Source of the DNA: Gammaproteobacteria bacterium
GTDB lineage: Bacteria > Pseudomonadota > Gammaproteobacteria > Eutrophobiales > Eutrophobiaceae
Direction of reading: 5' to 3'
Length of the DNA: 64,000 nucleotides
NCBI GenBank assembly: GCA_965240365.1
Contig: OZ251218.1
Coordinates: forward strand, 2,648,922 to 2,712,921
In this document: one piece after another, positions 28,982-48,690 of the stretch
How the letters are laid out: every line of letters begins with the position of its first letter
Position numbering within the stretch: position 1 is the first letter of the stretch
Program-made: the position numbers and the translations under genes
The notes under the pieces: model-generated
Told to the model about the DNA's origin: nothing
Seen by the model: the letters and a program-made list of their open reading frames with translations, nothing else
The model's database searches: none

Positions 28982-30622
28982 TCACCCCGTGGAGAGGTGG
29001 CCGAGTGGCTGAAGGCGCTCCCCTGCTAAGGGAGTATACGGTTTATCCCGTATCGAGGGTTCGAATCCCTCTCTCTCCGCCATTTTGAAATTCGAGTTCC
29101 TGAAATCACCTAAGAGCTTGAAAGGTAAGGTGGTTTTGGGTGTTCGAAACCCGTGAAATCGCTGATAGACAAGATGTTCCCCAAACGTCAGTTTGAGGAA
29201 TGCTCTTTTGTCCTCTAATGCGTCTGAAACCCATAGTACAAGGGGGTTTTTCAAAAACCGCATGAGTGTTCGAACAGTTTCATCAAAACCGCGTCTGATC
29301 TGCCCCTCGGATTGCATTTTTTCGCTCAGCAATAGTTTTTCTTCTTCTAATGATTTGATCTTTTTCTCATAGGCCGCGATCACCGATGGCGTATCAGCCT
29401 CGACGATGTGATCCAGCAACTGATCTGTTTTTTGTTCGATGGTTGCTATCTGCGACTTAAAATGCTGCATACGCGCCTGTTTGTTTTGTATCTCCCTGTC
29501 CCAAAGGTTCCTGAACAGCTTTTGCGCCATGGACGCGGCCCCTTTGGACGGCACTATTTTTTTGATCAAAGTGTGGAATTCACCTTCCATCCGGTCGCGC
29601 TTGATAGACTTGCGATAGCTTTCGCAGCCCTTTTTGAAGCACAAATAATAGGGGTGCTTTTTGCCGCTTTTGCTGGTTGACCAGCAAGCCGTTAAGGCTT
29701 CGCCGCAATCACCGCACAGCACCGCTCCGCGCAGCGGGAAATCTGCCTGAAGATTCTTGCGGGTTGGGGCATAGGCTTTTTCTTGCAGGCGCTCCTGAAT
29801 ACGCTTATAGGTCGCAAAAGTAATCAATCCTTCATGCAGACCTTCCCGAAGCGCAATGCCTCGCTGGGGAAATTCGACATAGCCTGTATAGATCACGCGG
29901 GTCAGGATGTCATTGACAAGCTGATTACGCACCTTGCCGTGTCCGTCTTTGGGGAAATCCGGCTGACTTTCCAGATACCGGGCGACTTCGGCCTGCGTTC
30001 TGAGTTGTCCATACGCGTATCTATTAAGGGCATTGGCAATAATACTGGCGACAGGTTCAGCGCGTACCAAAATATTGGTCTGGCCTTTGCCGGGGTTCAG
30101 GCGTTTGTAACCCATAGGTTCAGAAAACGGCCAGTGCCCTCGCAATAAGCAGCCGGTTTGACGATTGATCACCTGCTCGGAATATTTGCGTGACGTGTGA
30201 TGCGCAAACAGCGCCGCCATATTCTCACTCATTTCAGAGTCGGCGTCATCGCCAAATTGCTGGTTTGGCGACATCAATATGCCGCCGGCTTTGGTAATGG
30301 CTTTGCGTAATGACCTATGCGCGTCAATATCCCGCGCCAGACGGCTGATGTCGTCAATTAAAACAATTTGCGGTGTCTTGCGGTGTTTGCGCAAATAGGC
30401 CAGCATCGCTTTCATGCCGGGGCGATCTTCCGTGCGCCCGGTGATATTGTCCTTGAAGATTTCCACCACCTCGGCGTTAAGATAATTCTCCGCATAATCA
30501 CTCAGCCGCATCACCTGTGAAGCGAGCGATTGACTTTGCTCAGCCTGCCGGAGCGTGGATACCCTCGCGTAAATAACAGCATGTCCTGGCTTACTCATTC
30601 TGCTCTGCCTTTCCCGCCTCAT
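28982..30622 (-). CDS. Large serine recombinase (integrase); ORF reads through the tRNA on the antisense strand
   Basis: AVIYARVST, DDISRLARD, recombinase domain, zinc ribbon CGDCG...YYLC; last ~33 codons are antisense tRNA. Confidence 0.92.
   Translation of the reverse strand: MRRERQSRMSKPGHAVIYARVSTLRQAEQSQSLASQVMRLSDYAENYLNAEVVEIFKDNITGRTEDRPGMKAMLAYLRKHRKTPQIVLIDDISRLARDIDAHRSLRKAITKAGGILMSPNQQFGDDADSEMSENMAALFAHHTSRKYSEQVINRQTGCLLRGHWPFSEPMGYKRLNPGKGQTNILVRAEPVASIIANALNRYAYGQLRTQAEVARYLESQPDFPKDGHGKVRNQLVNDILTRVIYTGYVEFPQRGIALREGLHEGLITFATYKRIQERLQEKAYAPTRKNLQADFPLRGAVLCGDCGEALTACWSTSKSGKKHPYYLCFKKGCESYRKSIKRDRMEGEFHTLIKKIVPSKGAASMAQKLFRNLWDREIQNKQARMQHFKSQIATIEQKTDQLLDHIVEADTPSVIAAYEKKIKSLEEEKLLLSEKMQSEGQIRRGFDETVRTLMRFLKNPLVLWVSDALEDKRAFLKLTFGEHLVYQRFHGFRTPKTTLPFKLLGDFRNSNFKMAEREGFEPSIRDKPYTPLAGERLQPLGHLSTG
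28991..29082 (+). tRNA. tRNA-Ser(GCT)
   Basis: GGAGAGGTGGCCGAGTGG...CTGCTAA anticodon loop, long variable arm, GGTTCGAATCC, terminal CCA; usual position after csrA. Confidence 0.97.
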
Positions 30623-30974
30623 CAGAGGCCGATTGATTAAAGTGTCCCATGTTCCTTTGTTCTAACACATTTCCAGAATCCAGAGGTGTCTCTATGGAAT
30701 CCGGTGTGGATTTATCCACAAAATTCCGGGCCAGCAAAGCCTGTACCGTATCCTGCCCGACGCCCCAATCAACAAAGCCTTTGATAATATGGGCCAACTC
30801 AACCAGCCATGCCGCTTTTTGTTGGTCGCTTATATCCCAGTCATCCATAAAATGCCAATACTCCTGCGCTTTAAGACCATAAGGCAATTCTATACCTGTT
30901 GGACTTTCTGTTTCTGCAATTTCTGAAGCGTCTGCCGCTCGTAGTGTATGGCCGTCTGGCGCAATCTCATTCAT
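30591..30974 (-). CDS. Hypothetical protein upstream of the integrase
   Basis: 127-aa ORF co-oriented with and overlapping the integrase start. Confidence 0.55.
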   Translation of the reverse strand: MNEIAPDGHTLRAADASEIAETESPTGIELPYGLKAQEYWHFMDDWDISDQQKAAWLVELAHIIKGFVDWGVGQDTVQALLARNFVDKSTPDSIETPLDSGNVLEQRNMGHFNQSASDEAGKAEQNE

Positions 30975-31108
30975 GGGCTTATCCTTTGTATGTTTCGGCT
31001 TGTTCCTCCTCTTTCGCTTTTAAGAACAAAGAAAGAACGTATGACTCGTTTTTTCAATCTTGGCAAGATATAAAATCCTGTTTGCTGACAAAAATTATGC
31101 GGTTTTTA

Positions 31109-31534
31109 TCAACCTGCCGGTTCCAGGCCGGTTGCACACACACCATGGCATGCCTCGCGCTGGCGCTGCTGTTGCGCTTTGTCGATAGCGTCAAAGGCGT
31201 CTGCGGCGCGGGCTGGTGTTTGAGCGTTCTGAAGGCCACGCCGCGCCCGCTGTATCTCCTGCTCCCAACGCCGGTTAAAGTGTTCTCGGATCACAGCATG
31301 CGCTTTTTGCGGCTTTAGCCGCGGGAAAGGCTTGTCCGTTTTCACCATCAGCGCGCCTTGCCCTTGCTCACCCTGGCGCTCTGCTTCCGTCTGGCGCGTC
31401 GCTTCACGTTCGATACGCCCAAACGGGCCGGACGCCTCGGTAAATTCCCCTTGCGGGCTTTCCCGCTTGCCCAGCGAATCCGGCAGGCCGTCACGCCCCT
31501 GTGACGACACACCGCCATAGCGTGGCCGCTTCAC
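31109..31534 (-). CDS. Hypothetical protein
   Basis: GTG start overlapping the coupling-protein stop (GTGA); charged, helical. Confidence 0.45.
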   Translation of the reverse strand: MKRPRYGGVSSQGRDGLPDSLGKRESPQGEFTEASGPFGRIEREATRQTEAERQGEQGQGALMVKTDKPFPRLKPQKAHAVIREHFNRRWEQEIQRARRGLQNAQTPARAADAFDAIDKAQQQRQREACHGVCATGLEPAG

Positions 31535-33144
31535 CACGTCCTGTACCCCTGCACATAGGCGACCTGGCCATTGGCGTGATTGGGCCAATGCGCCAGATGC
31601 CTGGGCACGTCCTCGCGGATAAAGCGCCGCGTCCGCTGGAAGAAACGGCCCTGAACGCCGAGGCGATCCAAAGGTGGAAACAGCGGGTCTGGCCCGTAGC
31701 GGCCCGCCATGGCCGGATTAGTCCAGTAGGCTGGCAGCTTGTTGGCCAGCACCGGCGGCAGGCCCGAACCCGGCGATATCACCAGCACTTCATCCTTGAG
31801 TCCCAGAATTTCAGCCGGATCAAGCGCATAGCGCCCGCTCCTGCGCCGCTGCCCGCTTTGAGCGCCTTCGTGCCCGGCGATATGAGCGGCTTTCAGCGGG
31901 TCGGCACCCTCCAGCAGGGCGGCGAGCCGGGCCTGCTCCGAGCGCAGGCGGTGATTGCCCTGCGCCATCGGATCATCAAGCTGAATAGTGACCTTGCCGA
32001 CGGTATCGGCCAGCCTTCTGGCCGAAGAGATTTCCCGGATACCGCCTCCCATATACAGTTGCATGCCGCAACTATCAATAATCTCCTCCGCTCCGGCTTT
32101 GCCCATCAGATGCACAAGCTGCCCGTGACTCTGATAAACCAGCAGCGTGCGAAAGAACTTCCGAAACTCCGATACGGCGGATTTAATAAAATCCGCACCG
32201 CCGCAGCTAACCGCTTCCTCGATAAAGAAGAGCGGCCTTGCGCCCCGCCCCGCGCGAACGCAGTGAAGCTGGGCGATACCCACCACCATCCGCGTCAGGC
32301 TTTCATTGAACGTCCCGCTGCCGCTGGGCTGGGCATAATACACACCGATCTTTTTGCCGGGATCGGCAAGCTCAGGCAGATAATCCGCATCGCCGCTCAC
32401 CGCCGCGGCGGCCTTGGGCGAAGACAGCCAGTCAAAACTGTCTTTCAGACAGCCGATGATCGCGCCCCATTCCTTCTCGGAATTATGTTTTTTGGCGTAC
32501 ATCTCCACCAAGGTCGAGTAGATATTGTAAGGCATGCCCTCAGAACTGCGGCCTATGGCTTTCAAGAACGCATCGTCAGTGTCAATGCGGTTGAGCGTTT
32601 CCCAAAAGCCCCGCGGTGTAACCCGACCTTCCAGCAGAACCTTTTGCATGGCGATACGGCTCCCCCAGCGTTTGGCCGACTGGCCCACCCAGGCGTTCTC
32701 GCCCTTGCTGTCCTGATTCACAACACCCATTGCGATGATGCGTTTGGCGTTATCGAACAGATCATCATCGGCTTGCAGAATACTCCACAGATCAACCGGA
32801 TGATTGATGTCCGGGTAGGCGCTCACGCCAAACGGATTGACGGCGTAGGCGTCGCGTCCCGCGGCGAGATTCCAGTGCCAGCTTGTGCTCATATACTGCC
32901 CGCCGACATCCAGCATGAAAAAACTGCCCGTCGAAGGGTGAACCAACTGATAGGCGCCCAGACATGAAAACTTGGCGCTGCCCGCGCCGCCGATGATGAT
33001 GCCGGGTTCCTGATCTGGCAGCCGCAGACAAGTATTGCCGATCACGGCCACGGGGCCGTTGGGATTACCCAGCCGCCGCGCGTCATCCTGCGTTCCCAGC
33101 CGGGCAGACCCGTAAGGATTCTCGCGGTAGAACCGTCCGTCCAT
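31531..33144 (-). CDS. Type IV coupling protein (VirD4/TraG-like)
   Basis: IIIGGAGSAKFS Walker A-like, FMLDVGGQ, PLFFIEEA Walker B-like, LVYQSHGQL; start MDGRFY at 33144. Confidence 0.8.
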   Translation of the reverse strand: MDGRFYRENPYGSARLGTQDDARRLGNPNGPVAVIGNTCLRLPDQEPGIIIGGAGSAKFSCLGAYQLVHPSTGSFFMLDVGGQYMSTSWHWNLAAGRDAYAVNPFGVSAYPDINHPVDLWSILQADDDLFDNAKRIIAMGVVNQDSKGENAWVGQSAKRWGSRIAMQKVLLEGRVTPRGFWETLNRIDTDDAFLKAIGRSSEGMPYNIYSTLVEMYAKKHNSEKEWGAIIGCLKDSFDWLSSPKAAAAVSGDADYLPELADPGKKIGVYYAQPSGSGTFNESLTRMVVGIAQLHCVRAGRGARPLFFIEEAVSCGGADFIKSAVSEFRKFFRTLLVYQSHGQLVHLMGKAGAEEIIDSCGMQLYMGGGIREISSARRLADTVGKVTIQLDDPMAQGNHRLRSEQARLAALLEGADPLKAAHIAGHEGAQSGQRRRSGRYALDPAEILGLKDEVLVISPGSGLPPVLANKLPAYWTNPAMAGRYGPDPLFPPLDRLGVQGRFFQRTRRFIREDVPRHLAHWPNHANGQVAYVQGYRTW

Positions 33145-33146
33145 GT

Positions 33147-33437
33147 TCAAAACAGACCCCGGCGCGAACCGCCCCGTATAAACCCCTGAACAAACAGTTG
33201 CAACAGCACCGACACACCAAAAAAACAGGCCAGCACCACGATGCCCACAAACGCCCAGCTTCCCCAAACCGCCAGTTCGCGGCCGAACTCAGCGGCCAGA
33301 TAATGAAACATCTCTACCCGCACCGTTCTGGCGATGACCGGCGCCAGGAAGAATGCGCCCAGCGCCGCCAGCGCATGACTGAAACGCGCGATATTCTTGA
33401 CGAGGCTGGATGCGGGAGCCGGATTGAAATCTCTCAT
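33147..33437 (-). CDS. Small membrane protein (2-3 TM)
   Basis: 96 aa, hydrophobic; start overlaps the upstream stop (ATGA) and the gene abuts the T4CP start. Confidence 0.65.
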   Translation of the reverse strand: MRDFNPAPASSLVKNIARFSHALAALGAFFLAPVIARTVRVEMFHYLAAEFGRELAVWGSWAFVGIVVLACFFGVSVLLQLFVQGFIRGGSRRGLF

Positions 33438-34768: not shown

Positions 34769-34810
34769 AGCGTTACCTCGCTTATGGTTTATCGGATTAA
34801 ATACATGCGC

Positions 34811-35740
34811 CTACATATAGCGGCGCAGCGCTGCCAGCCGGATGCAGCGCTTGTTGATATAAAGATCACGTTGTGCTTCCAGTCTGGCGACCTTGCCCCG
34901 GCAGATGCCATAGGCGTCGCTGAGTTCTTTCACCAAACCCCGCTGCGCCTTGACAGTCCTTGTCAGCGCGATGTATTGCGGGTTATCATCAAGCATGTCC
35001 GGCTGATATCGACGATAGATACCGGAAGCCGCGATCCACAACGAGCTTCCCGTCAGAAGCTCCACCAGTAACTGCGTCAACACCAGCGAAGAACCCCCAT
35101 GCGAACCCGACAGCAGAACGTCGAATTCGATCTGGACTGCAACCCCAGGATAAGCCTGTGCGAACAGATAAGCCCACACGCCCAGCGCGCCGCCATTTAT
35201 CAAAAAGACACTCAACTCATAGCGCCTGCGGCTGCTATTGGTTGGTAAATAATCCGAGGCAAACTTTAAGGCGAGCGACCCAAGCGGCAAGAGCATCGCC
35301 AGACCCCACGCCAAAAAGGGAGATTCAATAAAAATCGGAGAAAACGAAGTGCGCATCGCAAAATTCAGATTTAATGCGCCCATGCCCACGGCGGCGATAC
35401 CGCCAAAAATGGCCACCCAAAACTGCCAGAAATCATAATGCTTCCACCGTTCCGGCTCCGCGTCTTCTGACGTTTCAGGTTTTCTGGAAGGAACAAGCTG
35501 ATCCGTGTTGCGCAGGCGCTTTTCCAGCTTGCTCAAATCATCGTTACCCGACGTGAACCTTGCCTCCGTGTGCGCAAAGGCTTGCTTTGCGGCAATGAGA
35601 TCGGCGCCGAATTCAACATCGCATTCGCGTGCAGCATGCGCTTTCATCAAAGCCATTGCCTGTTTTTCGTTTGGCAATAAAGCCAGTTCGTGCAAGATGT
35701 AATCGTTCGGCTTTCTGCCGTCTTTGGAATTTGCGCTCAT
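34811..35740 (-). CDS. Four-TM membrane protein flanked by coiled coils
   Basis: Four hydrophobic spans around aa 105-240; charged helical termini. Confidence 0.65.
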   Translation of the reverse strand: MSANSKDGRKPNDYILHELALLPNEKQAMALMKAHAARECDVEFGADLIAAKQAFAHTEARFTSGNDDLSKLEKRLRNTDQLVPSRKPETSEDAEPERWKHYDFWQFWVAIFGGIAAVGMGALNLNFAMRTSFSPIFIESPFLAWGLAMLLPLGSLALKFASDYLPTNSSRRRYELSVFLINGGALGVWAYLFAQAYPGVAVQIEFDVLLSGSHGGSSLVLTQLLVELLTGSSLWIAASGIYRRYQPDMLDDNPQYIALTRTVKAQRGLVKELSDAYGICRGKVARLEAQRDLYINKRCIRLAALRRYM

Positions 35741-35743
35741 GGT

Positions 35744-36124
35744 TCAGTCCTCTCCGGCGTAACCGTGCATCGGCTTGTGAGATGCCGTGATGTCTTCAGC
35801 GTAAGCGAGCAGCGTTTCTTCCCAATCCCCGGTTCGATGAGTGTCAACTATGAAGTCGCCAGGAGCTTCTTCTAAAACCAAAAACTGAATATCATCATCA
35901 GAATCAACTTCGATAGTCGTATCCCCAAAGTTCCCGTAGACTCTCAAGGTGGTATGCGCGTCGAGAATCACGATTTGGGAAGATAGGAGGCCTGACTCGG
36001 CTTCACCGTCCGTTTCAATAATGGCAACAGCGGCTTTGATTAAGGCGTTTACCGCTCCACGAGAAGCGGAACTGGATTGGCGTGTATGAGGGTGCAGCAT
36101 TGTTCTTTCCTCTATGTTGGACAA
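35744..36124 (-). CDS. Hypothetical protein, first gene of the T4CP operon
   Basis: 126-aa acidic ORF 3 nt upstream of the next gene. Confidence 0.55.
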   Translation of the reverse strand: MSNIEERTMLHPHTRQSSSASRGAVNALIKAAVAIIETDGEAESGLLSSQIVILDAHTTLRVYGNFGDTTIEVDSDDDIQFLVLEEAPGDFIVDTHRTGDWEETLLAYAEDITASHKPMHGYAGED

Positions 36125-36768: not shown

Positions 36769-39700
36769 GTGAAATTGAATCTGGCAGTTTCTGAAAAATT
36801 TATCGGCTATTACGAAAAAGTAATAGTTGCGGCATCTTCTGATGGGAGGGATGACGCAGAACTCAAATTCTCCCGATTTAAACCGGGTAAGACAGGGCGG
36901 AAAGCATTTGGAGATTGCTGGGTTGCATTTTTTTTGTGTGATTTTTTGCGTGACAAGAAAGATCAGGCAAATGGCGCTGATGAGATTAAGAAGATCAAAG
37001 CGGTTGTAGAAGACGATGGCTTGTACAAATGGGAACAGCTTAAAGCATATATTACCTCGAATTTACACGGGTTCACTACAAAAAAAGCGGACTGTATTTT
37101 TGTTAGGCTGTCCGCGACACTGGCGCAAGACCCAGACGAGACTTTCCTTGAATTTCTGAAATTCTGCAAAGGAAAACCGCTGGCCTGCTTTTACGAATTG
37201 CCAGAATCAGCAGAAAAATTGGCGCATAGGGCGGGCGAGTCGTTAACTATGCAAGAAATATCTCTGCATAAAAACCTGCAAAAGAAAGCAATAGAAACCT
37301 TAAACCAACTTATTTCCAATCTTGATAACCACATAAAATCAAAGTCAAACGAGAATAAAAAAGAAGCGTCAGCAACTCAGGCCGCTTCACCTCGGCAATC
37401 TGATCGCCTGTTGCGCTTAATCACAAAAGATAAAATCTGGCATGAAGACCACGAATCATTATCTCTCAGCCCCTACAATCATCATGGCAAGCTGCATGGC
37501 CGGGACAATGAAATTGGAGCGCTGAATGCCTTTCTTGGCGACCCTTCGCCGTTTGAGTTTCTCTTTATCATTGGCCCGTCCGGCGCTGGCAAGACACGGC
37601 TCGTTACCGAGTGGTTTCGAAAACATGCCACGATTGATAACTGGCAAGCCGGGTTTGTAGAAGATGACAGCCTGTCAGAGTCCTGGCGCGCATGGAACGC
37701 CGAGCCTGTTCAGGTCGATACGCTTATCATTGTTGATTACATCTATCGCTTCCGTGATGTGATAACGCATATTGTCAACAAAGGCAATCATCATGCGCAG
37801 GCGCATGCGACAACAGACCGGCCCTTGAGCGAACCGTCGCCGTCCACGGACGCGCCGATTGTTCCAAAGCTCAGGTTGATTGTTCTGGATCATGTGTTTC
37901 CCGACAAGGCGACATTCGATGATCTGGACGCTCACAAAATTGAAGCGATGGGCGAAACACAAGCCAATGTGGTCAACAATCTGAGCGCCATGCAAAAGAA
38001 ATATCCCCCGATGGTGCTTCAACAATCAAAGAAGATGCTTAAGGCCATTATCGCGGAATCCTACGGCAACCTCGATGATGAAGACAGCGTTGAATGGGCG
38101 TATCAAACGCTACAGCGCATTGATGGCGAGGTAGAAGCGAGCGTTGATACAGACCATGCGGATACCCCTGCCAAAGACAGCCCTGAAGCCACCATCCGCT
38201 ATGCCAGTCAGCCATTGTTCGCAAAACTCATCGGCGAGGCGCTCAAAAAACACCCGCCGGGAGAGTCGATTAAGAACGAAAAGCTTGCACCGTGGAGTCG
38301 CCGCGACTTGGTTGCCAGGTATTTTTTTAACAATAGAAACCGGCTGCCGTGGTACTTTGACGATAAGTACGGCCAATGGATTGGCGCGGCCATTGCCGCC
38401 GCTACGGTGATTCAGGGCTTGCGGTTTGATGATCTATTCCAGTGTCTCAATGACATTGGCGTGAAGCTGGAGAGAAAAGACAGAGATCACCTGAAATCAA
38501 CCTGCAACAATATCGTTTCGTCAAGAGACTCAGAGGAGTTGAAAAGATACGAACCTGACATACTGGGCGAGAACTTTGTTTTTACATTTCTTGATAACTT
38601 TCGGTATTTTGCCCCTTGTGAAAACAGCGAGCCAAAAAATGATGTCCGTAAGTTTTTTTTCAGGCTTTTACTTTTCACCGATGTGAACCAGAAACCATTT
38701 CCGACCCCGAATGAACGTTTCATTGAATTTATCAAGCGCGCTATGCGCAACCTCCTGCTGGATGATCAAAGCGTCCATAGTGTAGGTGATGGATGGAAAG
38801 CACTGGCGGGGCTTTTGCAACCCGGTCAATATAAATCTGAAGATATGTACTTTTCGTCCATACTGGCCAGCGTTAATACGATTTCCGATATTGGAAACAG
38901 CAGCGCTCATGGGAGTAGAGCATTACAGGCTTTATTCGGGGAAAATCTGGGAATTGAGCAGGCATCCTACCTCGCTAACACCTTTGATAAATCAAGTCGA
39001 GATAAGAATCATGCAAGAAAATTAGATTCTGTATGGGGCTTATGTTTGTCCGCATTAACGCGGTATGTCGATTGGCTTTTAGAGAATGGAAACCTGTCGA
39101 AGGAAATTGAAGAGATATTCGAAAATAGCGCTGAAGTTTATGAACAAACCGCAAAGTTTGGTGGAAAGCGGATTTTTATACCATGTTTATACGATGCGAG
39201 GAACGTCCTGAAGTGGTTGATTGAAAACTATCGAGAAATCGACATCAATTACCAAAGTGACAAGAAATGGTCACCTTTGCATTGTGCTTGTTTCTCTGGC
39301 AGTACAAAGGTGGCGCTATGGCTGGTTGATAAAGACGCCAATCTTGAAGCGCAGACCAAGGAGGATAAGTGGACGGCATTGATGTTTGCCTGCCGTTCCG
39401 GATCGGAAAAGGTGGCACTACGGCTGGTTGCCAAAGACGCCAATCTTGAGGCGCAGAACAAGGATAAGTGGACGGCATTGATGGTCGCTTGTAGGGAAGG
39501 CTTGGAAAAGGTGGCGCTACGGCTGGTTGCTAAAAACGCCAATCTTGAAGCGCAGACCAAGGAGGATAAGTGGACGGCATTGATGTTCGCTTGTGAGAGC
39601 GGCTTGGAAAAGGTAGCGCTAGGGCTGGTTGCCAAAGACACCAATCTTGAGGCGCAGACCAAGGATAAGTGGACGGCATTGATGGTCGCTTGTAGGGAAG

Positions 39701-40677
39701 GCTTGGAACAGGTGGCGCTACGGCTGGTTGCTAAAAACGCCAATCTTGAAGCGCAGACCAAGGAGGATAAGTGGACGGCATTGATGGTTGCCTGCCGTTA
39801 CGGCTTGGAAAAGGTGGCGCTGCGGCTGGTTGCCAAAGACGCCAATCTTGAGGCGCAGGAGAGGGAAAAGTGGACGGCATTGATGTTTGCATGCCGTTAC
39901 GGCTTGGAAAAGGTGGCGCTACGGCTGGTTGCCAAAGACGCTAATCTTGAGGCGCAGGACAAGGATAAGTGGACGGCATTGATGTTCGCCTGTCGTTATG
40001 GCTTGGAAAAGGTAGCGCTAGGGCTGGTTGCCAAAGACGCTAATCTTGAGGCGCAGGACAAGGATAAGTGGACGGCATTGATGTTCGCTTGTGGGAATGG
40101 CTTGGAAAAGGTGGCGCTAGGGCTGGTTGCCAAAGACGCCAATCTTGGGGCGCAGGACAAGGATAAGTGGACGGCATTGATGTTCGCTTGTGAGAGCGGC
40201 TTGGAAAAGGTAGCGCTAGGGCTGGTTGCCAAAGACGCCAATCTTGAGGCGCAGGACAAGGATAAGTGGACGGCATTGATGTTCGCTTGTGAGAGCGGCT
40301 TGGAAAAGGTAGCGCTAGGGCTGGTTGCCAAAGACGCCAATCTTGAGGCGCAGAACAAGGATAAGGAGACGGCATTGATGTTTGCTTGTGAGAGCGGCTT
40401 GGAAAAGGTGGCGCTAGAGCTGATTGCCAAAGACGCCAATCTCGAAGCCGTTGACCCGGAGGGAAGGACAGCGCTCATGTGGGCTGCTCTCCGCTGTTCC
40501 AGCCGCGTCGTGGGCGCGTTGCTAGATAAGCAGGTAAGCACTGACGGGATATGGCAAGGCAGAAAATTCCGCGCTACCGCGCTTGGTCTGGCAAGAGTAC
40601 GCGGAGACAAAGAAATTATTCGATTGCTTGAAAAGAAAGGCGCACTCGAAATCCCGCCTTACACGCCACCCGCATAA
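36769..40677 (+). CDS. NLR-like protein: unknown N-terminal domain, STAND-like NTPase, ~14 ankyrin repeats
   Basis: LHGRDNEI...IIGPSGAGKTRL, TLIIVDY; repeats KWTALMxACxxGLEKVALxLVAKDANLEAQ. Confidence 0.85.
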   Translation: MKLNLAVSEKFIGYYEKVIVAASSDGRDDAELKFSRFKPGKTGRKAFGDCWVAFFLCDFLRDKKDQANGADEIKKIKAVVEDDGLYKWEQLKAYITSNLHGFTTKKADCIFVRLSATLAQDPDETFLEFLKFCKGKPLACFYELPESAEKLAHRAGESLTMQEISLHKNLQKKAIETLNQLISNLDNHIKSKSNENKKEASATQAASPRQSDRLLRLITKDKIWHEDHESLSLSPYNHHGKLHGRDNEIGALNAFLGDPSPFEFLFIIGPSGAGKTRLVTEWFRKHATIDNWQAGFVEDDSLSESWRAWNAEPVQVDTLIIVDYIYRFRDVITHIVNKGNHHAQAHATTDRPLSEPSPSTDAPIVPKLRLIVLDHVFPDKATFDDLDAHKIEAMGETQANVVNNLSAMQKKYPPMVLQQSKKMLKAIIAESYGNLDDEDSVEWAYQTLQRIDGEVEASVDTDHADTPAKDSPEATIRYASQPLFAKLIGEALKKHPPGESIKNEKLAPWSRRDLVARYFFNNRNRLPWYFDDKYGQWIGAAIAAATVIQGLRFDDLFQCLNDIGVKLERKDRDHLKSTCNNIVSSRDSEELKRYEPDILGENFVFTFLDNFRYFAPCENSEPKNDVRKFFFRLLLFTDVNQKPFPTPNERFIEFIKRAMRNLLLDDQSVHSVGDGWKALAGLLQPGQYKSEDMYFSSILASVNTISDIGNSSAHGSRALQALFGENLGIEQASYLANTFDKSSRDKNHARKLDSVWGLCLSALTRYVDWLLENGNLSKEIEEIFENSAEVYEQTAKFGGKRIFIPCLYDARNVLKWLIENYREIDINYQSDKKWSPLHCACFSGSTKVALWLVDKDANLEAQTKEDKWTALMFACRSGSEKVALRLVAKDANLEAQNKDKWTALMVACREGLEKVALRLVAKNANLEAQTKEDKWTALMFACESGLEKVALGLVAKDTNLEAQTKDKWTALMVACREGLEQVALRLVAKNANLEAQTKEDKWTALMVACRYGLEKVALRLVAKDANLEAQEREKWTALMFACRYGLEKVALRLVAKDANLEAQDKDKWTALMFACRYGLEKVALGLVAKDANLEAQDKDKWTALMFACGNGLEKVALGLVAKDANLGAQDKDKWTALMFACESGLEKVALGLVAKDANLEAQDKDKWTALMFACESGLEKVALGLVAKDANLEAQNKDKETALMFACESGLEKVALELIAKDANLEAVDPEGRTALMWAALRCSSRVVGALLDKQVSTDGIWQGRKFRATALGLARVRGDKEIIRLLEKKGALEIPPYTPPA

Positions 40678-41373: not shown

Positions 41374-42129
41374 ATGGGCTTTCCACCGCTATATCATCAC
41401 TTTGTCGCCGCCGTTTACGGCAAAGAGCAGGACGCGGTTTTTGACCAGCAGATGCAGGCCGCGTCGGCAGGCATGGGGACGCTGGATGAAAGCCAGTTAT
41501 CAGGGCTATTGGCGTTGACGCTGGCGCGGATTAAATCCCAAAATAAGGCAGAGACCAGGCACAAACAGTCCGTCCGTGAAATTCTGCACTACGTGTTGCT
41601 TGAATATATCGACAATCTCAATCGTGATATTTCAAAGCTGGAAGCCGGGTTTGAAGCGCAGTTCGGCGATGCCTGGCGCGAAGAAATCGCCCTGCGGGTG
41701 TTTGGCCCGGATGCGGTGCCCGCACAACGCCCCGGCGAGCGTATCAAAGACTACCGCACGCGCCTTGAACGCGCGCTAAGGGAAGAAATGCTGAATCCTG
41801 ACGGCAGCATCAAGGATCAGTACAAAGACGATCCCGAACTGGAAAAATACGCTGAATGGGCGCAGAAAATCTATAACCGGGAGGTTGCCAGAGCCATTGC
41901 CAATGATCTTAAGAACCCAGCCAGCACCCATGCGCAGACGCATCAGCTTTTGCAGGGGCTGGAAGAAGCGCAAAATGCTGAGCAAAACACCTATGCCGCT
42001 CGTGAGCTTCTAGGGAATGAAGAACATAGGAACGCAATTTTGACTATTGATGATAATGCCGATGATCGCGTAGGCTTGCAAAATCAATCAGACTTTACTC
42101 TCGATTTCTTGAAATTTCCCGGTCAGTAA
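41374..42129 (+). CDS. Hypothetical helical protein
   Basis: 251-aa ORF, no family recognised. Confidence 0.6.
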   Translation: MGFPPLYHHFVAAVYGKEQDAVFDQQMQAASAGMGTLDESQLSGLLALTLARIKSQNKAETRHKQSVREILHYVLLEYIDNLNRDISKLEAGFEAQFGDAWREEIALRVFGPDAVPAQRPGERIKDYRTRLERALREEMLNPDGSIKDQYKDDPELEKYAEWAQKIYNREVARAIANDLKNPASTHAQTHQLLQGLEEAQNAEQNTYAARELLGNEEHRNAILTIDDNADDRVGLQNQSDFTLDFLKFPGQ

Positions 42130-42744
42130 CAAGCGCTGGATTCCTGTTCTTTGCCCTTTCTGCGACACCTGAAATTTTCTCACGTACATTGCTAATGAGA
42201 AACGGGCCTTCCGTCCCGCCCCTAACATGCAGTGCTATTACAGAGGCAGGAACATCGTTTTTTTCATAGAAGAATCTGATTTGGTCAATACCATGACGCT
42301 TGAAATCGCGAGTCAACACCATCTTGATCTGATCGTCAGTAACGGCAGGTCGGGTACCCATACGCACGGATACCGCCACACCGAACGGGTTTTTCTCCGA
42401 CCATTCACTACCCAGAACCTTAACACAGGTTGCGTATTTGCAGTCCGTGATGTAATCGCCTGAGGCGTCAAAGCCGCCCGCGTCCTGTGACGTATCCGCC
42501 CGCGCCGCGCCGACAAAAGCACTTGCCGCCGCGCAGAGAATCAGACACAGATAAAACGTTCGTTTTTGCTAGTGTTCGAGATATGGGCCATGTGCAGGGC
42601 CAGAAAATTCGTAAGTGATTGAAATTTATAGGAATGGGAGTGCAGCTATGCGAAAAAAACCGAGTCCGGGAAAACGAACGTTTTTGTATATCATTAATAC
42701 ACTGAAATCATTGACTCTTTTAGCTATCTCAGGAGGATAAAAAC

Positions 42745-43212
42745 GTGCGCTACGGCTATGTCAGAACATCCAGAAACTGCCAGCACACCGACCGGCAGGT
42801 CAACGAACTGGCGCAACACTGCGATGTGGTGCGCATAGAAAACGGGGTCTCGGCCAGAAAGAAAGAGCGCCCGGTGTTTCGCCAGCTTCTGTCTGAGGTG
42901 GGCAAGGGCGATGTCTTGGTGGTCACGTCCTATGACCGGGCCTTTCGCAACGTGGTCGAGGGCTTAACGGCGCTCGATGCGCTGAGCGCGCGCCAGGTGC
43001 GGTTTGAATCCGTCTGGCAGAAATTCGACCCCACCACGCCCGACGGACGGCTGTTCTACACCATCACACTGGCCATGGCCGAATGGGAAGTCGGCAATCT
43101 GGCGCTGCGCACCATCGACGGCCTCAAAGCCGCCGTACAACGCGGGGCCACCCTCGGACGCCCCAAAAAAGGCCGGGCCGGACGCAGAGTGAACATGGCG
43201 CAATGCGCCTGA
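42745..43212 (+). CDS. Small serine recombinase (resolvase/invertase); C-terminal HTH apparently missing
   Basis: RYGYVRTS...RQ, RPVF, GDVLVVTSYDRAFR, GATLGRP; 155 aa. Confidence 0.85.
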   Translation: MRYGYVRTSRNCQHTDRQVNELAQHCDVVRIENGVSARKKERPVFRQLLSEVGKGDVLVVTSYDRAFRNVVEGLTALDALSARQVRFESVWQKFDPTTPDGRLFYTITLAMAEWEVGNLALRTIDGLKAAVQRGATLGRPKKGRAGRRVNMAQCA

Positions 43213-43400
43213 TATGGCTACCTGGGCACGCGCATTGAGGGTGAGGGGTTTTACCACTGAGAACGCGCCGTTTGGGAGCAGATTGAACGCGCGCCTGCCT
43301 AAATTCTAAATGTGCCGGGGTCGTTGTTGTGGTAGAGGTACATTATTCTCGACAAAACTGCTAATATTTGGTAGTTTAGGAATAGAGAGAGGATAAAATC

Positions 43401-43667
43401 ATGCCGACAACCAGTATCGACCTTGGCGAACACTTCACCGGCTTTGTCGCCGCCATGAAAGAAACGGGCCGCTACCGCAACGCCAGTGAAGTGGTTCGGG
43501 CGGGCCTGCGCCTGCTTCAGGAACAGGAAGCCGAATACCAGACCAAACTCGAAGCGCTGCGCCAGGCGCTGGAAGAGGGCGAGCAAAGCGGCGAGAGCGC
43601 CAAAACACATGCGCAGATCATCGCCGAGGCGAAAACGGAAATGAATGGCCGGATGAATGGCCAATAG
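43401..43667 (+). CDS. parD: ParD-family antitoxin
   Basis: TSIDLGEHF...GRYRNASEVVRAGLRLLQEQE...LRQALEEGEQSG. Confidence 0.9.
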   Translation: MPTTSIDLGEHFTGFVAAMKETGRYRNASEVVRAGLRLLQEQEAEYQTKLEALRQALEEGEQSGESAKTHAQIIAEAKTEMNGRMNGQ

Positions 43668-43950
43668 ATACGTCTATTCAAAACGGGCGGCGCGTGACCT
43701 CAAAAAAATCTATATCGACACCGCAAGGGAATGGGGTGTCGCACAAGCTGACAAATACGCCGCCGGACTTGAGAATGCGCTCACGTTGCTGGCTGAAAAC
43801 CCGAATTTGGGCCGCCGCTGCGATGAGATACGGGCCGGGTATCGGCGCTTTGAGCATGCGCGTCACATCATTTTTTACCGCGGACGCAAAGCCGATATTT
43901 TCATTGTTCGTATCTTGCATGACCGGATGGATAGTGAGCGGCATTTCTAA
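43657..43950 (+). CDS. parE: ParE-family toxin
   Basis: SKRAARDL..IY..T...WG..QAD.Y...NPNLGR...HIIFYR...IVRILHDRMD. Confidence 0.9.
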   Translation: MANRYVYSKRAARDLKKIYIDTAREWGVAQADKYAAGLENALTLLAENPNLGRRCDEIRAGYRRFEHARHIIFYRGRKADIFIVRILHDRMDSERHF

Positions 43951-44075: not shown

Positions 44076-45518
44076 TTATAGATTCATGCCGGGCGTATAG
44101 ATTCCTTGCTGCGCGGTCCGGTTATCATAGGTGTGTGCTATTTCAGGCGGCGATGGATTGTCAGCCATATATTTTGCCACTGCCTCCAAACCGCCCTGCG
44201 CTTTCAAATCCTCATACTGTCTCGCAAACAGCTTTGCGTTGGCCTTGACCTCGATGAGCGATTGCACTTCGAGCGGCATGTCATCGGTGAGGGTGTTCGG
44301 CAGTTTATTAAATACGGCGGTTAAATGCATGGACGGCTTATCATGGCCCGTTACCCAATCCCAGGTATCACCGAAGACGCTTTTTGCCGCCGCGCTCAAT
44401 GTGTGCATGGCGTCTTGCGAAACCTCGATTACGCCGCCTTTTATGGCTGCAAAATTGGCATAGACTTTTTCTGTGATATAGCCCGCGCCGACGCCTCCGC
44501 CTATAGCGCCCGCAACGCCGCCAACCACGCCGCCTATGGTCGTTCCCACGACAGGCACAACCGAGCCGATAGCCGCCCCGGTTGCGGCCCCGGCAACGGC
44601 GCCGCCTAAAGAACCCAGATTAGAGGCGGTTTCGATGGTGGCAGACCGGGCGGTTGCTTCCATATCATTATCAAGGAGATCAGGACTGGTTTCACCATAA
44701 GGCACAGCCGCTTCATAGGTAACTTCGGCGGCTTCGGCTTTTGAACCGCCGGCGGCCAGTGTAAACACGCCGGATAATGTGCCAAAGGCGACACCAGCCA
44801 CAAAACCGCCACTTTTGCCCAGATTACTGAATGTTTCCGCCAAACTCTGCAAGCGGCTATCTCTATTGGCTTCCAACATGGCCGCGCCGTTTTCATTCAA
44901 TAATGAATCCAGATTGTTTTTCTGGGCCGGATCGTGAAAAATTGCTTGCTGTTGCTCTAAAAGGCGCTGCCATTTTTCTGTCTCTGCATCTGTAAGAGGA
45001 CGATTTTCTGCCTTTGCAGTCCGCTCTATTGCCTGAATTTCTTCGTATAATTTGTGCGCCTTTTCACCCGCTATGGCCATGTCGTGCTGATCTACACGAA
45101 ACTCTGCGACATGGCCGTTTGGCAGGCGCACCTGTGTGTTGAGTGTGCGAAAATGTGTTTCCAGAGGTTCCGCGTAAAAGTCTTTAACTTTAACGATACC
45201 TAAAGTTTCTTTTAGCGCGGCAATTTCATCACGAATAATTTGAATTTGTTCAGGCGTTTCCACGAGTAAACGGCCACGCACCATATCAGAAATTCTTGTA
45301 TGGCTGCCACCATAATCGCCTGTGATTTTATCCTGAATGCGCTCTAAATCTTTCAGAGGCGCACTTTGAAATTCAATGCCGGTAAACTGTTCAGGATATT
45401 TATCTTGAAGATATTGGAGAAAGTTCTGACCAAACTCTGCAAAATCAGGCATCGCCTCGCCGGCCTGGTCATAAAGCTGCTTTAAATTCAGATCAGGATT
45501 TTGCAATCCTTCTTCCAT
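44076..45518 (-). CDS. RelA/SpoT-family alarmone synthetase domain (Apk/Tas1-like) fused to a glycine-zipper C-terminal region
   Basis: APLKDLERIQDKITGDYGG, SDMVRGRLLV, KDFYAEP..HFRTLNTQVRLPNGHVAEFRV, AHKLYEEI; later GSLGGAVAGAATGAAIGSVVPVVGTTIGGVVGG. Confidence 0.78.
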   Translation of the reverse strand: MEEGLQNPDLNLKQLYDQAGEAMPDFAEFGQNFLQYLQDKYPEQFTGIEFQSAPLKDLERIQDKITGDYGGSHTRISDMVRGRLLVETPEQIQIIRDEIAALKETLGIVKVKDFYAEPLETHFRTLNTQVRLPNGHVAEFRVDQHDMAIAGEKAHKLYEEIQAIERTAKAENRPLTDAETEKWQRLLEQQQAIFHDPAQKNNLDSLLNENGAAMLEANRDSRLQSLAETFSNLGKSGGFVAGVAFGTLSGVFTLAAGGSKAEAAEVTYEAAVPYGETSPDLLDNDMEATARSATIETASNLGSLGGAVAGAATGAAIGSVVPVVGTTIGGVVGGVAGAIGGGVGAGYITEKVYANFAAIKGGVIEVSQDAMHTLSAAAKSVFGDTWDWVTGHDKPSMHLTAVFNKLPNTLTDDMPLEVQSLIEVKANAKLFARQYEDLKAQGGLEAVAKYMADNPSPPEIAHTYDNRTAQQGIYTPGMNL

Positions 45519-45585
45519 TCCACACTCCCTGTTCTAAAACTGCCTGTCCTTTTGTTTGTTATGAAAGCAGCTTTATATGTTTTAT

Positions 45586-46416
45586 TCATTCAAGGCTTTT
45601 GCCAAGCATAGCTTCCGCTTTCTCGCGGAATTGTTCTTCCGTAATTTCCTCAACTTCCATGCTATAAACCAAACGACTCAGATATGTTGCATCCTGCACC
45701 AATTCGCCTTTTTCACGATTTGGCACTTCTGCTCCCTTTCTTAAGCCTTTGTCATTAAAAGCCACACGCACAGGCACGCTTTCACCTAATAAAAAATACT
45801 GATATTTCACCTTACCTTTTCCCATTGTTGGCTCGGCATGACTTCCACTGCCCCTAATTTTTGGCGCGTCATTAATTAAACTATATACATTTTCTGTAGT
45901 GATGCGCAAAGCGGCGCATAGTTTTCCTATGGATGTATGATAACGCTTTCCTAAACGCTCGGCTTTTTCCGGATTTTTTTGTGTTAAATCCGCCACGCGC
46001 TCAGGGTGTAAATTGTCCATATTATCCGCGAGCTTCACCAGCATTGCGCCCCGGTTTCCGCTGGAAATAACATCATCAATAACCTGCGCATAACTGCGCC
46101 GGTCATTTTCCGGTTTCGTTACAATGCTTACAATGGCAATACACGCTGCGGAGTAGTCTTTCTGGCTCAGGTATTTTTCATCAATGCCACAATCTTCTAT
46201 CGTGTCGTGAAGCATAGCGGCCATAACCACATCATCACTGGCTTGCGGGTCCAGTGTTTTTACATTGCGCGCGACTCTGATAGGATGGGCAACATAGGAT
46301 TTGCCATTATGATCGGTCTGGCCAGCATGCAATTCGCGGATTAAACCCAGCGTATATTCAATGCCCGGATGCATTGCCTTGTTAAACCCTGTATTTGATG
46401 TGATTGATTTCATCAT
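45586..46416 (-). CDS. HD-domain small alarmone hydrolase (Mesh1/Aph1-like) with an extra ~75-aa C-terminal domain
   Basis: LHAGQTDHNGKSYVAHPIRVA, AAMLHDTIED, VKLADNMDN. Confidence 0.85.
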   Translation of the reverse strand: MMKSITSNTGFNKAMHPGIEYTLGLIRELHAGQTDHNGKSYVAHPIRVARNVKTLDPQASDDVVMAAMLHDTIEDCGIDEKYLSQKDYSAACIAIVSIVTKPENDRRSYAQVIDDVISSGNRGAMLVKLADNMDNLHPERVADLTQKNPEKAERLGKRYHTSIGKLCAALRITTENVYSLINDAPKIRGSGSHAEPTMGKGKVKYQYFLLGESVPVRVAFNDKGLRKGAEVPNREKGELVQDATYLSRLVYSMEVEEITEEQFREKAEAMLGKSLE

Positions 46417-46671
46417 ACTTTTCTACTTTAAATAATATAAAAATTTTAGACAATTATGATTAAAAAAACGTGAATGATTGCGCCTTATCCGTGCAATTTT
46501 CAACGATTTCAATATATTAAGGCTTAAAAAATGACTTTGGCAGCCGCTGTCGATGGCATTCAATGATGTAAAGCCGGGTGATTTTAACGAGATTAGCCGG
46601 ATTCTGATGATTTCCTGAGCATTCTGGGATTATACACCAGCTTGCCAGACAGAGGCCACTTCTGCAATTTG

Positions 46672-47961
46672 TTATCGCTCTAAAGAAACGCCGTTGGCGC
46701 GGCGCGGGCTGTCCGGGCTTGCGGCTTGATCAAACGCATCGCGCCGCCCTTCGCGGATATCCTGAAATTGCGCAATGTCGGCCCTGATGTGTTCTGTGCT
46801 GGCGTCCCTATATTGCGCCAGACGCTTTATCCGCCGCGCAAGCGCGCGGCGTTGCTCAAGCTGCCTGAAAACCAGCGTATCTTTTTCGCCGCGATCACGT
46901 TGCAAGGCGTATGCCGCGTCTTGCTCGTTTTGCTCCCGGATACGGCGGTGTCTGCCGGTAAAATGATCCAGCAGGCCGCGCAGCCCCTTGTTAAACCGTC
47001 GCTGCCGCGCCCTGGTTTCCCGGATTCTTCTCTGAGCATGATCAGAGTCCAGCGTCCCGCGCTCGGCTTTTTGTCGCTGAACGAGTTCGGCTAGCAGACG
47101 TTTGATGTCTTGCTGGCGGACTGCAATGGCCGATTGCTGCGCGCGGCCTAGCGTGTCCAGCCGCCTGGCAAGGGCCGCCGCCATTTCCGCCCTGGCCTCC
47201 CGCACACCGGGCAACCCCTCAGGCTCACCGAGCTTGGCGGCAACCTCTTTTTTGCCGGTTCCTTTTTTGAGTTGCCGGGCAACGGAATAGACCTCGCAGC
47301 GTTCATCAATGGCCACATAGCCGCGCCGACCGACGGCCAGCCTGTAACCGCGTTCATTCAGGGCGTGTCTGAAAGAGGCAAGGCTGTCGCTCACGGCCCA
47401 GCAGTCCTGAAAGGCCGCTTTCACCTCGCGGCTGTGCTTACCGGCCCGCCGCGCTTGCTGCCACTGGGCAAGCGTGTAATTTTTGGGGTCACGCTCGGCG
47501 GAACACATAAACCCGCGCGGCATTTTCCAGCCATGTTCTATATACAGATCGCGGGAAATAGCCATCAGCCTGCGCTTGTAAAAATCAATCTTGATGGCTT
47601 TCATATTCACCGCATCAATGCGCGACCAGACCACATGACAATGCCGCCGCCCCTTTTTCTCATGAAAGACAATCGCGCGCGGCTGGCCGGACAGCCCTAA
47701 ATCCTGCTCCGTGCGTTCGATGGCCCTCAGAAAGGCTTCAGTCGGAACCCGTGCCGTTTGTGGCGGGTTTATGCTGAGAGCAAACATAAACTTCTTCGCC
47801 TTCGTGCCCCGGCTGACGGCGTAAATCTCGTTCAGCGCAGGGGCCAGATCATCGGACATAAAGCCGCGCAACTCGTGCACGGTGACATGATCGTTTTCCT
47901 CTTTGAGCAGATGCAGCGCCAGATTTTTCGCGCCGCCGCGTTCATTGCCTTCCAGAATCAT
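46672..47961 (-). CDS. Relaxase/mobilisation nuclease (MOBP/VirD2-like)
   Basis: MILEGNERGG..LA.HLL, FALSINPP, HEKKGRRHCHVVWSRID (HxH motif). Confidence 0.88.
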   Translation of the reverse strand: MILEGNERGGAKNLALHLLKEENDHVTVHELRGFMSDDLAPALNEIYAVSRGTKAKKFMFALSINPPQTARVPTEAFLRAIERTEQDLGLSGQPRAIVFHEKKGRRHCHVVWSRIDAVNMKAIKIDFYKRRLMAISRDLYIEHGWKMPRGFMCSAERDPKNYTLAQWQQARRAGKHSREVKAAFQDCWAVSDSLASFRHALNERGYRLAVGRRGYVAIDERCEVYSVARQLKKGTGKKEVAAKLGEPEGLPGVREARAEMAAALARRLDTLGRAQQSAIAVRQQDIKRLLAELVQRQKAERGTLDSDHAQRRIRETRARQRRFNKGLRGLLDHFTGRHRRIREQNEQDAAYALQRDRGEKDTLVFRQLEQRRALARRIKRLAQYRDASTEHIRADIAQFQDIREGRRDAFDQAASPDSPRRANGVSLER

Positions 47962-48200
47962 GTATCGCCACCGCATCTTAGCCCCAAAGCGACAAACAGG
48001 GCTTCGCGCATGGCCAGCACCGCCGCGCAGGCTTCTTCAAGCTGCCGTTCCACATGCTCGCCGGTTTCCAGCGTCCCGCAGTGGGCCGCTTTCGCAAGCT
48101 GGTTAAGGTTATTGGGAATGCGCGACTGGCCCAGCCCGGCAAGCAGCGCGGCCACCTTAGCGCTCGCGCCCCCGGCCGCATGGCCCCCCGCCCGGGCTTC
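47958..48200 (-). pseudogene. MobC relaxosome accessory protein, C-terminal fragment
   Basis: LGQSRIPNNLNQLAKAAHCG; stop overlaps the relaxase ATG; N-terminal RHH part not found. Confidence 0.7.
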
Positions 48201-48227
48201 CTGAGCAATTTACCTCAATGCTGTCCT

Positions 48228-48690
48228 TTCCTGCCTGTAGCAGTCAGCAGGCAGGCCAGCTTCCGCCCTCGTTGTCATTCCGGCGAAAGCCGGAATCCAG
48301 GAAGGCGATCCGGGGTGTTAAAGAGATTCCGACTTTGCTGGCCTGCGCATAGCGGGCCGAAATGACTTTATTATTGTCATTCCCGCCTTGGCGGGAATGG
48401 CTTGTCTAAACCACTGGATTCCGGCTTTCGCCGGAATGACGATGGGTTTTTTTGGATGTTCTTTCGCCAACCTGCAAAGGGCAGGTTGGAATGACTTTGA
48501 AAGTTGCCGGGATGCCTCTCGTCTTTTCGTTGTCATTCCGGCGAAGGCCGGAATCCAGGAAGGCGATGCCGGGGTGTTAAAGAGATTCCGACTTTGCCGG
48601 TCTGCGCGTAGCGGGCCGCAATGACTTCATTATTGTCATTCCCGCCTTGGCCCTGCATGCAGCAGGCAGGCGAAAGCCGGAATCCACTTT
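48228..48690. repeat. Dense REP-like palindrome cluster containing a ~120-bp duplication
   Basis: Several GTCATTCCGGCGAAxGCCGGAATCCA units; ~48271-48390 repeated at ~48529-48650. Confidence 0.85.

Follow-up and report, generated by a model that had tools for sequence, protein, structure and literature searches.

A candidate alarmone-synthetase toxin–immunity cassette of reversed polarity on a mobilisable element of a gammaproteobacterium

The DNA analysed here, referred to as the window, is a stretch of 64,000 nucleotides from a gammaproteobacterial assembly of the family Eutrophobiaceae (GCA_965240365.1, contig OZ251218.1, positions 2,648,922 to 2,712,921 of the forward strand). It contains a mobilisable element integrated at tRNA-Ser, and directly downstream of the relaxase gene of this element lie two genes that encode a protector and a toxin. 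The toxin begins with a predicted RelA/SpoT homologue (RSH) synthetase domain and ends with a conserved membrane-type module that is also found behind many unrelated enzymes, and the protector joins an HD hydrolase to a small immunity domain. We propose that the pair is a toxin–immunity cassette and represents a family of polymorphic toxins, not described before, in which the polarity is reversed, and put the probability of this explanation as a whole at roughly 0.55. The gene layout, the folds and motifs, and the glycine zipper are far beyond what chance would produce. An initial annotation had already described two co-oriented genes 67 nt apart downstream of a relaxase, an upstream HD hydrolase acting as protector, a Tas1/Apk-like toxin, a layout inverted with respect to the toxins of type VI secretion systems (T6SS) and MuF proteins, with the toxin head N-terminal and the immunity gene upstream, and an element with genes for a coupling protein and a relaxase and none of a T6SS or phage. 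All of these points were upheld, and several others were extended as described below.

The first 220 residues of the toxin were modelled with AlphaFold2 from a 28-sequence alignment, with pLDDT values above 90. A Foldseek search with the head model returned Tas1 first (E value 4e-7, TM score 0.67), followed by the exported Streptomyces synthetase SaEAS and by RelP/RelQ, and 50 of the top 50 matches were RSH synthetases. A phmmer search of the toxin against all sequences of the Protein Data Bank (PDB) also gave Tas1 as the best match (accession number 6ox6, 8e-5, over residues 50–152). On the modelled fold the head is firmly a member of the RSH synthetase superfamily with the nucleotidyltransferase (SYNTH) fold, and its closest solved RSH enzyme, by sequence and by predicted fold, is Tas1. 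One element of the expected domain assignment was lacking, as the toxin has no match to Pfam RelA_SpoT (PF04607) at E ≤ 0.1, and its match to TIGR00691 is weak (1.8e-4), far under the family cut-off. The homologues P0011, P0024 and P0027–P0036 do match PF04607.

The motifs of the head follow one another as K56..R60..K64, D78xxRGR83, KDFYAEP..HFRTLN, AE139FRVDQ and H155KLYE. An alignment of 28 homologues shows no variation at K56, K64, D78, R81, G82, E139 and H155, and at least 90% of the sequences retain R60 and R83. The sequence of the catalytic strand is AEFRVDQ in the subclade of the toxin, AEIQIQQ in its sister clades and ExQxRT in housekeeping enzymes. Comparison with relatives at 77–80% identity gave a dN/dS of 0.09–0.10 for the head, which indicates strong purifying selection. 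A signal peptide was not found in the toxin. Two further matches of the toxin were rejected: one to Pfam OmpH, which is sub-threshold, and one to LeoB in PADLOC (1.5e-4), which covers 42 glycine-rich residues and reflects low complexity.

The HD domain of the protector matches Pfam HD_4 (9e-10) and contains the motifs HP..V, LHDTIED and ADNMDN. Among solved structures it is closest to the (p)ppApp hydrolase Aph1 (PDB accession number 7smg), both by sequence (4e-12) and by the fold of the protector model, for which 7smg is the best match (TM score 0.78–0.83, 30–32% identity). Aph1 of Bacteroides caccae is a (p)ppApp-specific hydrolase with the signature residues D24, R96, D116, R119, K133 and Y134, and the double mutation of D24 and R119 relaxes its adenine specificity such that ppGpp is cleaved (PMC10083569). 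Alignment with this signature shows that D24 and R119 are retained in the protector as D35 and R140, and that N114 of Aph1 is retained as N135. D116 is aligned to H137 and R96 is not kept. The equivalent of K133/Y134 is probably the family-invariant pair R158/Y159, offset by four residues. The retained residues point to an adenine alarmone as the substrate of the protector, which falls short of proof.

The initial annotation had named a hydrolase as partner of the toxin; the HD hydrolase stands, and the protein proved to be a fusion of hydrolase and small immunity protein. Residues 198–276 form a compact β/α domain (pLDDT 78–94) that follows a disordered linker and begins at an internal methionine. 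In most relatives this domain is a separate gene of 79–97 codons between the HD gene and the toxin gene, and its dN/dS is 0.04–0.08. The fusion of HD and small domain is no error, because it recurs in five diverged clusters at 48–93% identity. A search of the small domain against PDB sequences gave no match, and there is no detectable sequence similarity to Tis1. In an ENA metagenome the element recurs at 95–98% identity (locus L001), and this copy has an insertion sequence placed exactly in the linker between HD and small immunity domain. In addition to this linker insertion, a HigBA-like pair and IS1595 are inserted between the toxin and ParE in the same copy (L001 8326–9633 and 11608–13648).

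The C-terminal part of the toxin, from about residue 226 to residue 480, comprises two hydrophobic stretches with glycine zippers, a loop with an invariant PYGE sequence, and a helical tail. The core begins with LGKxGG and continues with the first glycine-zipper hydrophobic helix, the loop and a long second glycine-zipper stretch. Residues 230–350 contain 15 GxxxG motifs, and the KD19 maxima of the two hydrophobic stretches are 1.68 and 1.71. In the loop consensus, AEAAExxYExAVPYGE..D..A..SATIETASN, the residues P, Y, G and E are invariant. Pfam recognises only generic glycine-zipper families within the module. The helical tail, with pLDDT values of 82–91 over residues 400–455, is kept in many members as LPxxxxxDMPPEVxxLxEVK..LF..F..L..GgL.eV..Y, a motif found in 69 proteins, and the extreme C-terminus of the toxin is variable and disordered with the last few residues hydrophobic. 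A profile of the tails matched designed PPR repeats through the 16-residue FEELKEqG at ~3 bits per repeat and was rejected as spurious.

The long glycine zipper that had been noted in the toxin is thus confirmed and belongs to a conserved module of 250 residues common to unrelated toxins. In the homologue search the C-terminal half of the toxin also occurred behind Zeta_toxin and VRP3/SpvC-like N-termini. A HMMER scan with residues 225–480 over 1.84 billion representatives returned 54 clusters at E ≤ 1e-10, and all of the 51 clusters that were inspected match the module core. The parts that precede the module vary from ~130 to ~1,170 residues. They include RSH, Zeta_toxin, Fic/Doc, PP2C, DnaJ with PP2C and VRP3/SpvC-like domains, a recurrent HExxH-like (metalloprotease-like) domain of ~400 residues, and several that have no assignment; homologue P0018 carries a Zeta domain on a nearly identical tail. 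The module might also act as a pore-forming toxin against which a membrane protein gives immunity; this idea was not adopted because no gene conserved across all loci could supply that immunity. Several distant members (P0072, P0073, P0104, P0113, P0115, P0134 and P0136) have a repeated ~60-residue domain between enzyme head and module, with the consensus ..W..V.D..G..AKYLD...M...E...L...LKA.G..Y.I..S...GG..VIA... The member P0071 (locus L012, 7665–10584) has a head with a weak resemblance to Osa/PFIN-like ParB-type proteins (E 0.0017), and its neighbours are the anti-restriction genes ArdC and KlcB and a Gabija-like OLD/UvrD pair.

The immunity genes vary with the toxin head and not with the tail. 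Reference parts were compared by BLAST with all open reading frames of ~30 loci, and the upstream reading frames were inspected. Wherever the DNA upstream of an RSH-type toxin could be read, the gene immediately 5′ of the toxin belongs to the small-protein family, and the HD gene is present in nine RSH-type loci. The Zeta-type toxins are preceded by a different family of small genes (L005 and L020, and three copies in L024), and the P0062-type toxins by a third (L010 and L027), so that three toxin types correspond to three distinct upstream families. Tandem immunity paralogues occur in L008, L026, L011, L024 and L036; among the RSH-type toxins the small protein is present in two copies in L008 and L026 and in three copies in L011. 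Two Zeta-type toxins that possess their own immunity genes are in addition preceded by orphan pairs of HD and small-protein genes (L020 1413–4613 and L024 706–4735), which are the footprint of a warhead replacement. Polymorphic toxin systems are recognised by the exchange of heads, by an adjacent immunity gene that matches the head, and by tandem and orphan immunity copies, and the family shows all of these with the polarity reversed. It is difficult to account for the surplus immunity genes if toxins do not come in from other cells. In the Apk2 system the Tis1-like genes are constant and the aph genes variable (PMC10083569), and in the RSH-type loci examined here the small protein is likewise the constant and the hydrolase the variable component.

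The positions of the features are collected in Table 1. Protector and toxin genes are both encoded on the minus strand and are separated by positions 45519–45585, and a GGGAG ribosome-binding site lies 8 nt 5′ of the toxin ATG. Upstream of the pair on the same strand are the relaxase gene (Pfam Relaxase, 1.9e-14) and then a remnant of mobC. Two sigma-70-like sites were located, by consensus matches only, in the AT-rich spacer before the protector gene, so that the pair probably has its own promoter.

Table 1 Positions of the toxin–immunity cassette and of associated features in the window.
Feature	Position	Strand	Evidence
Toxin gene, 480 aa: N-terminal RSH synthetase domain and conserved C-terminal module, without signal peptide	44076..45518	-	
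Tas1/Apk-like RelA-SpoT synthetase (nucleotidyltransferase) toxin domain, predicted, aa 1-215 of toxin	44874..45518	-	model, Foldseek, phmmer, dN/dS
Core of C-terminal module, aa 226-360 of toxin	44439..44843	-	clusters behind diverse N-termini, invariant loop residues, KD19
Helical tail, aa 395-480 of toxin	44079..44336	-	pLDDT, motif count
Protector gene, 276 aa	45586..46416	-	
Aph1-like HD (p)ppApp-hydrolase domain, predicted, aa 1-190 of protector	45847..46416	-	Pfam, Aph1 matches
Small β/α immunity domain, putative, aa 198-276 of protector	45589..45825	-	separate gene in most relatives, dN/dS, pLDDT
AT-rich spacer between relaxase and protector, 255 nt, likely cassette promoter	46417..46671	-	consensus matches only
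MobA/VirD2-type relaxase of the element	46672..47976	-	Pfam
MobC/NikA-like accessory gene, 5′-truncated, last ~66 codons left	47958..48155	-	comparison with intact relative
Divergent TraG/VirD4-type coupling protein of the same element	31531..33267	-	
Large serine recombinase at left end of the element, beside tRNA-Ser (28991-29082)	28982..30622	-	
Convergent pair p251 (+) / p94 (-), no assigned function	41374..42379	no single strand	
Resolvase and ParD/ParE, cassette neighbours in several loci	42745..43950	+	

The element starts at the tRNA-Ser gene with the large serine recombinase, and its coupling protein is encoded ~11 kb from the cassette. No mating-pore, T6SS or phage genes were recognisable in the element. 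Family members are found in Nitrosomonas spp., in metagenome-assembled genomes of Burkholderiales and alphaproteobacteria, and in Micavibrio, Kordiimonadaceae and Candidatus Thiodiazotropha. In the survey of neighbourhoods, relaxases of one family (41–99% identity) are encoded no more than 10 kb from the toxin gene in 11 distinct loci, namely the window and 10 others, and the coupling protein was seen in the window, L005 and L010. Many loci are thus carried by one family of mobilisable elements with related relaxases. The linkage is not universal, and three loci described below have no relaxase nearby. Recurrent neighbours of the cassette are a resolvase, ParDE, ArdA, an NLR-like ankyrin gene and the p251/p94 pair. 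The module was not found in the viral contigs of IMG/VR, which argues against a link to phages or MuF proteins, and a scan of JGI metagenomes for the module returned only four loci.

Several neighbouring genes recur at corresponding positions. The p251/p94 pair accompanies the cassette in the window, L001, L002, L005, L014 and L023; p251 has the conserved sequence DAWRE..LNPDGSIK..YA.WAQK, full-length relatives of p94/p148 have a signal peptide, and no Pfam or NCBIfam family was matched by p251 or p94. The window also encodes an NLR-like P-loop NTPase of 1302 residues with a nearly identical ankyrin array (36769–40677). Relatives of this NTPase occupy the same position in L001, L002, L014 and L023, and it is therefore part of the element backbone. 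The coupling-protein operon (30591–36124) contains five to six tightly packed genes without a Pfam or NCBIfam match, and a similar gene set is located 5′ of the coupling protein in L010. In the Thiodiazotropha element (L005 2809–4892) the slot directly 3′ of the relaxase holds a gene for a nucleoid-associated NA37 protein and a separate RelA_SpoT protein of 329 residues; this element family thus carries a further RSH cargo that is distinct from the toxin.

The best supported part of our explanation is the alarmone-synthetase toxin–immunity cassette itself, which would parallel Apk2–Tis1–Aph1, with (p)ppApp as the probable product and with hydrolysis and a bound inhibitor as the putative means of neutralisation. 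The head would transfer pyrophosphate from ATP to adenine nucleotides, and the formation of (p)ppApp would drain ATP and arrest growth. The producer would be protected twice by one fused protein, as the Aph1-like HD hydrolase would destroy the product and the small domain may bind and block the synthetase. Next in support is the role of the module as a trafficking part, which may serve for exit from the producer, for insertion into the membrane of a target cell, or for both, and would thus deliver the N-terminal enzyme to the cytoplasm. The immunity genes and toxin head would be exchanged as a unit against the constant tail, and since the warhead is N-terminal, the immunity gene lies upstream. 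The least supported step is the route. The cassette is cargo of a mobilisable element with a relaxase and a coupling protein, and the most likely path would therefore be a helper conjugative type IV secretion system (T4SS) that recognises the C-terminal tail via the coupling protein. Such a route fits because the constant part is C-terminal, the cassette adjoins the relaxase and published precedents exist; conjugation systems translocate many proteins by means of C-terminal or internal signals (PMC11288057). In its most specific form, which we regard as possible and less likely than not, the proposal is that the module is a new portable translocation signal that loads toxins onto the T4SS of a helper plasmid through the coupling protein of the element, and that the zipper helices carry the enzyme across the inner membrane of the recipient. 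If so, these elements would be armed hitch-hikers that kill or condition recipients without the matching immunity, and the module would be a third type of T4SS effector signal beside BID and XVIPCD.

A number of observations weigh against this explanation. The glutamate motif of the toxin is EFRVDQ and not ExQxRT, and the product could be (p)ppGpp or pyrophosphorylated tRNA instead. The glycine-zipper region of the toxin model has low confidence (pLDDT < 50), and a profile of 20 tails run against all PDB sequences matched no solved BID or XVIPCD domain and had no Pfam match. Type IV mating-pore genes were not seen near any of ~25 loci, and the module was not found among the plasmids of PLSDB. 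Loci L021, L034 and L035 are situated amid housekeeping genes with no relaxase nearby, and the linkage to relaxases in the other loci may reflect mere descent within one element family. The element of the window itself is without the 5′ two-thirds of mobC: the remnant of ~65 residues compares with an intact gene of 147 residues in L001, and the homology stops at 48158, where REP-like repeats begin (window 47958–48600). Presumably oriT was lost as well. The loss at mobC suggests that this copy is probably immobilised and no longer mobilisable, with the cassette intact.

The alternative that fares best is a purely intracellular toxin–antitoxin module of the element, for addiction or abortive infection. 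It would be a toxSAS similar to FaRel, with a small alarmone hydrolase (SAH) as type IV antitoxin and an additional binding antitoxin, and the module would tether the toxin to the inner membrane of its own cell or sense a trigger. The initial annotation had left the choice between such a toxSAS and an exported effector undecided. The antitoxin-first order of the genes is also normal for toxin–antitoxin modules, and the probable promoter of the pair, its place on a mobile element beside ParDE, the HigBA and defence genes in relatives, and the failure to find export machinery nearby are all in keeping with it, as are the toxSAS with SAH antitoxins of which PMC10083569 cites examples. However, a module of 250 residues common to unrelated toxin domains and multidomain N-terminal parts of up to ~1,170 residues are atypical for toxins of this class, immunity genes in tandem or as orphans would be pointless without foreign toxins that enter from outside, and distant members carry Fic, PP2C, SpvC-like and DnaJ domains, which are typical of injected effectors. 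We therefore consider a purely intracellular role possible and rather unlikely. An exported effector is favoured over a simple toxSAS because the module is shared by many unrelated toxins, each type of which has its own family of upstream immunity genes.

Export may also proceed without a T4SS, either through recognition of a C-terminal signal by a type I system or by lysis or vesicle release followed by self-insertion into target membranes. The Cdz glycine-zipper bacteriocins of Caulobacter are exported by a type I system via a C-terminal signal. The C-terminal location of the conserved part, the disordered extreme C-terminus and the lack of a Sec signal are compatible with such export, and so are the loci without any conjugation gene nearby and the marginally hydrophobic glycine-zipper helices, which are typical of self-inserting toxins. 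Yet genes for an ABC transporter or a membrane-fusion protein adjoin none of the loci examined, and the family is strongly enriched on relaxase-bearing elements, which makes this route improbable. Effectors aimed at eukaryotic grazers or hosts, with the module anchored in host membranes and the upstream genes protecting the producer before export, are very improbable: VRP3/SpvC-like, Fic, PP2C and DnaJ domains do occur in distant members and ankyrin-repeat genes are frequent neighbours, but the Nitrosomonas-type members carry toxins with bacterial targets (Zeta, RSH), conflict between bacteria is the usual setting of tandem and orphan immunity arrays, and the ankyrin neighbour, being an NLR-like NTPase, is more likely a defence gene.

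The reversed-polarity toxin–immunity cassette thus remains the preferred explanation. To our knowledge, (p)ppApp synthetase toxins have so far been C-terminal warheads of T6SS, type VII secretion system or phage MuF proteins, or stand-alone toxin–antitoxin toxins. The cassette described here would present the same warhead and two-layer immunity in a mirror-image architecture, within an unannotated family in which one C-terminal membrane-type module is combined with many enzymes. Should the module be a delivery device, it would represent a new export logic for inter-bacterial toxins and would establish, for nitrifiers and other environmental Proteobacteria, a connection between mobilisable elements and the delivery of toxins. 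Should it be only a membrane tether, the family would be a new class of membrane-localised toxin–antitoxin modules with swappable toxins. The natural fusion of hydrolase and putative binding immunity is a compact reagent for studying how two modes of immunity cooperate.

The cassette combines features of several known systems. In toxSAS such as FaRel/ATfaRel, as cited in PMC10083569, a small RSH synthetase toxin is neutralised by an adjacent small alarmone hydrolase, and the two-gene operon of RSH toxin and SAH-type antitoxin is common to both. These toxSAS are single-domain cytoplasmic proteins, whereas the present toxin has a C-terminal extension of 265 residues with the ~250-residue membrane-type module that it shares with non-RSH toxins. 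A survey of exported alarmone synthetases (EAS; Ahmad et al. 2025) describes only Sec signals and the N-terminal delivery domains LXG, XopAD, MuF, DUF4157 and PAAR/Rhs, and one Streptomyces EAS clade adjoins TrwB/TrwK/TrwI genes (PMC12691689). The link between an RSH synthetase and export pathways is thus shared, but no protein in which the synthetase comes first and a module follows at the C-terminus is reported in that survey. No paper that combines glycine zipper with Zeta toxin was retrieved by a full-text literature search.

The X-Tfe effectors of the X-T4SS of Xanthomonadales have variable N-terminal toxins and a conserved C-terminal XVIPCD of ~120 residues that binds VirD4 (PMC6536674). 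As in X-Tfe/X-Tfi pairs, many toxin heads are borne on one conserved C-terminal domain and the cognate immunity gene is adjacent. In contrast to them, the module shows no similarity in sequence to XVIPCD, a dedicated X-T4SS is absent, the toxins would act in the cytoplasm and the immunity proteins are without a lipoprotein signal. VbhT/VbhA of Bartonella schoenbuchensis and PezT-BID are toxin–antitoxin systems with a C-terminal T4SS signal on the toxin, encoded directly downstream of a relaxase (PMC5675462). The cassette resembles VbhT/VbhA, FicT-BID and PezT-BID of conjugative plasmids in its upstream antitoxin, in its N-terminal toxin with C-terminal extension and in its location directly 3′ of the relaxase, and the Fic and Zeta/PezT heads of those toxins occur in the present family too. 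It differs in that the extension matches no BID domain and has hydrophobic glycine zippers, and in that the element itself lacks mating-pore genes and transfer is hypothetical here.

The closest relatives are Tas1/Apk1 of the T6SS of Pseudomonas aeruginosa and the MuF prophage toxin system Apk2–Tis1–Aph1 of Bacteroides caccae, (p)ppApp synthetase toxins with immunity proteins (PMC10083569; PDB accession numbers 6ox6 and 7smg). In those toxins the toxin domain is C-terminal, whereas here it is N-terminal and PAAR, Rhs or MuF delivery domains are absent; the immunity gene lies upstream, its two components are fused in the protector of the window, and EFRVDQ replaces EIQVNS or ExQxRT. With these systems the cassette shares a head that best matches Tas1, a protector that best matches Aph1, and a double immunity made up of an enzyme and a small protein. 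The logic of warhead and immunity was thus known already, and what is new is the reversed architecture, the C-terminal module with its family, and the fused double immunity protein.

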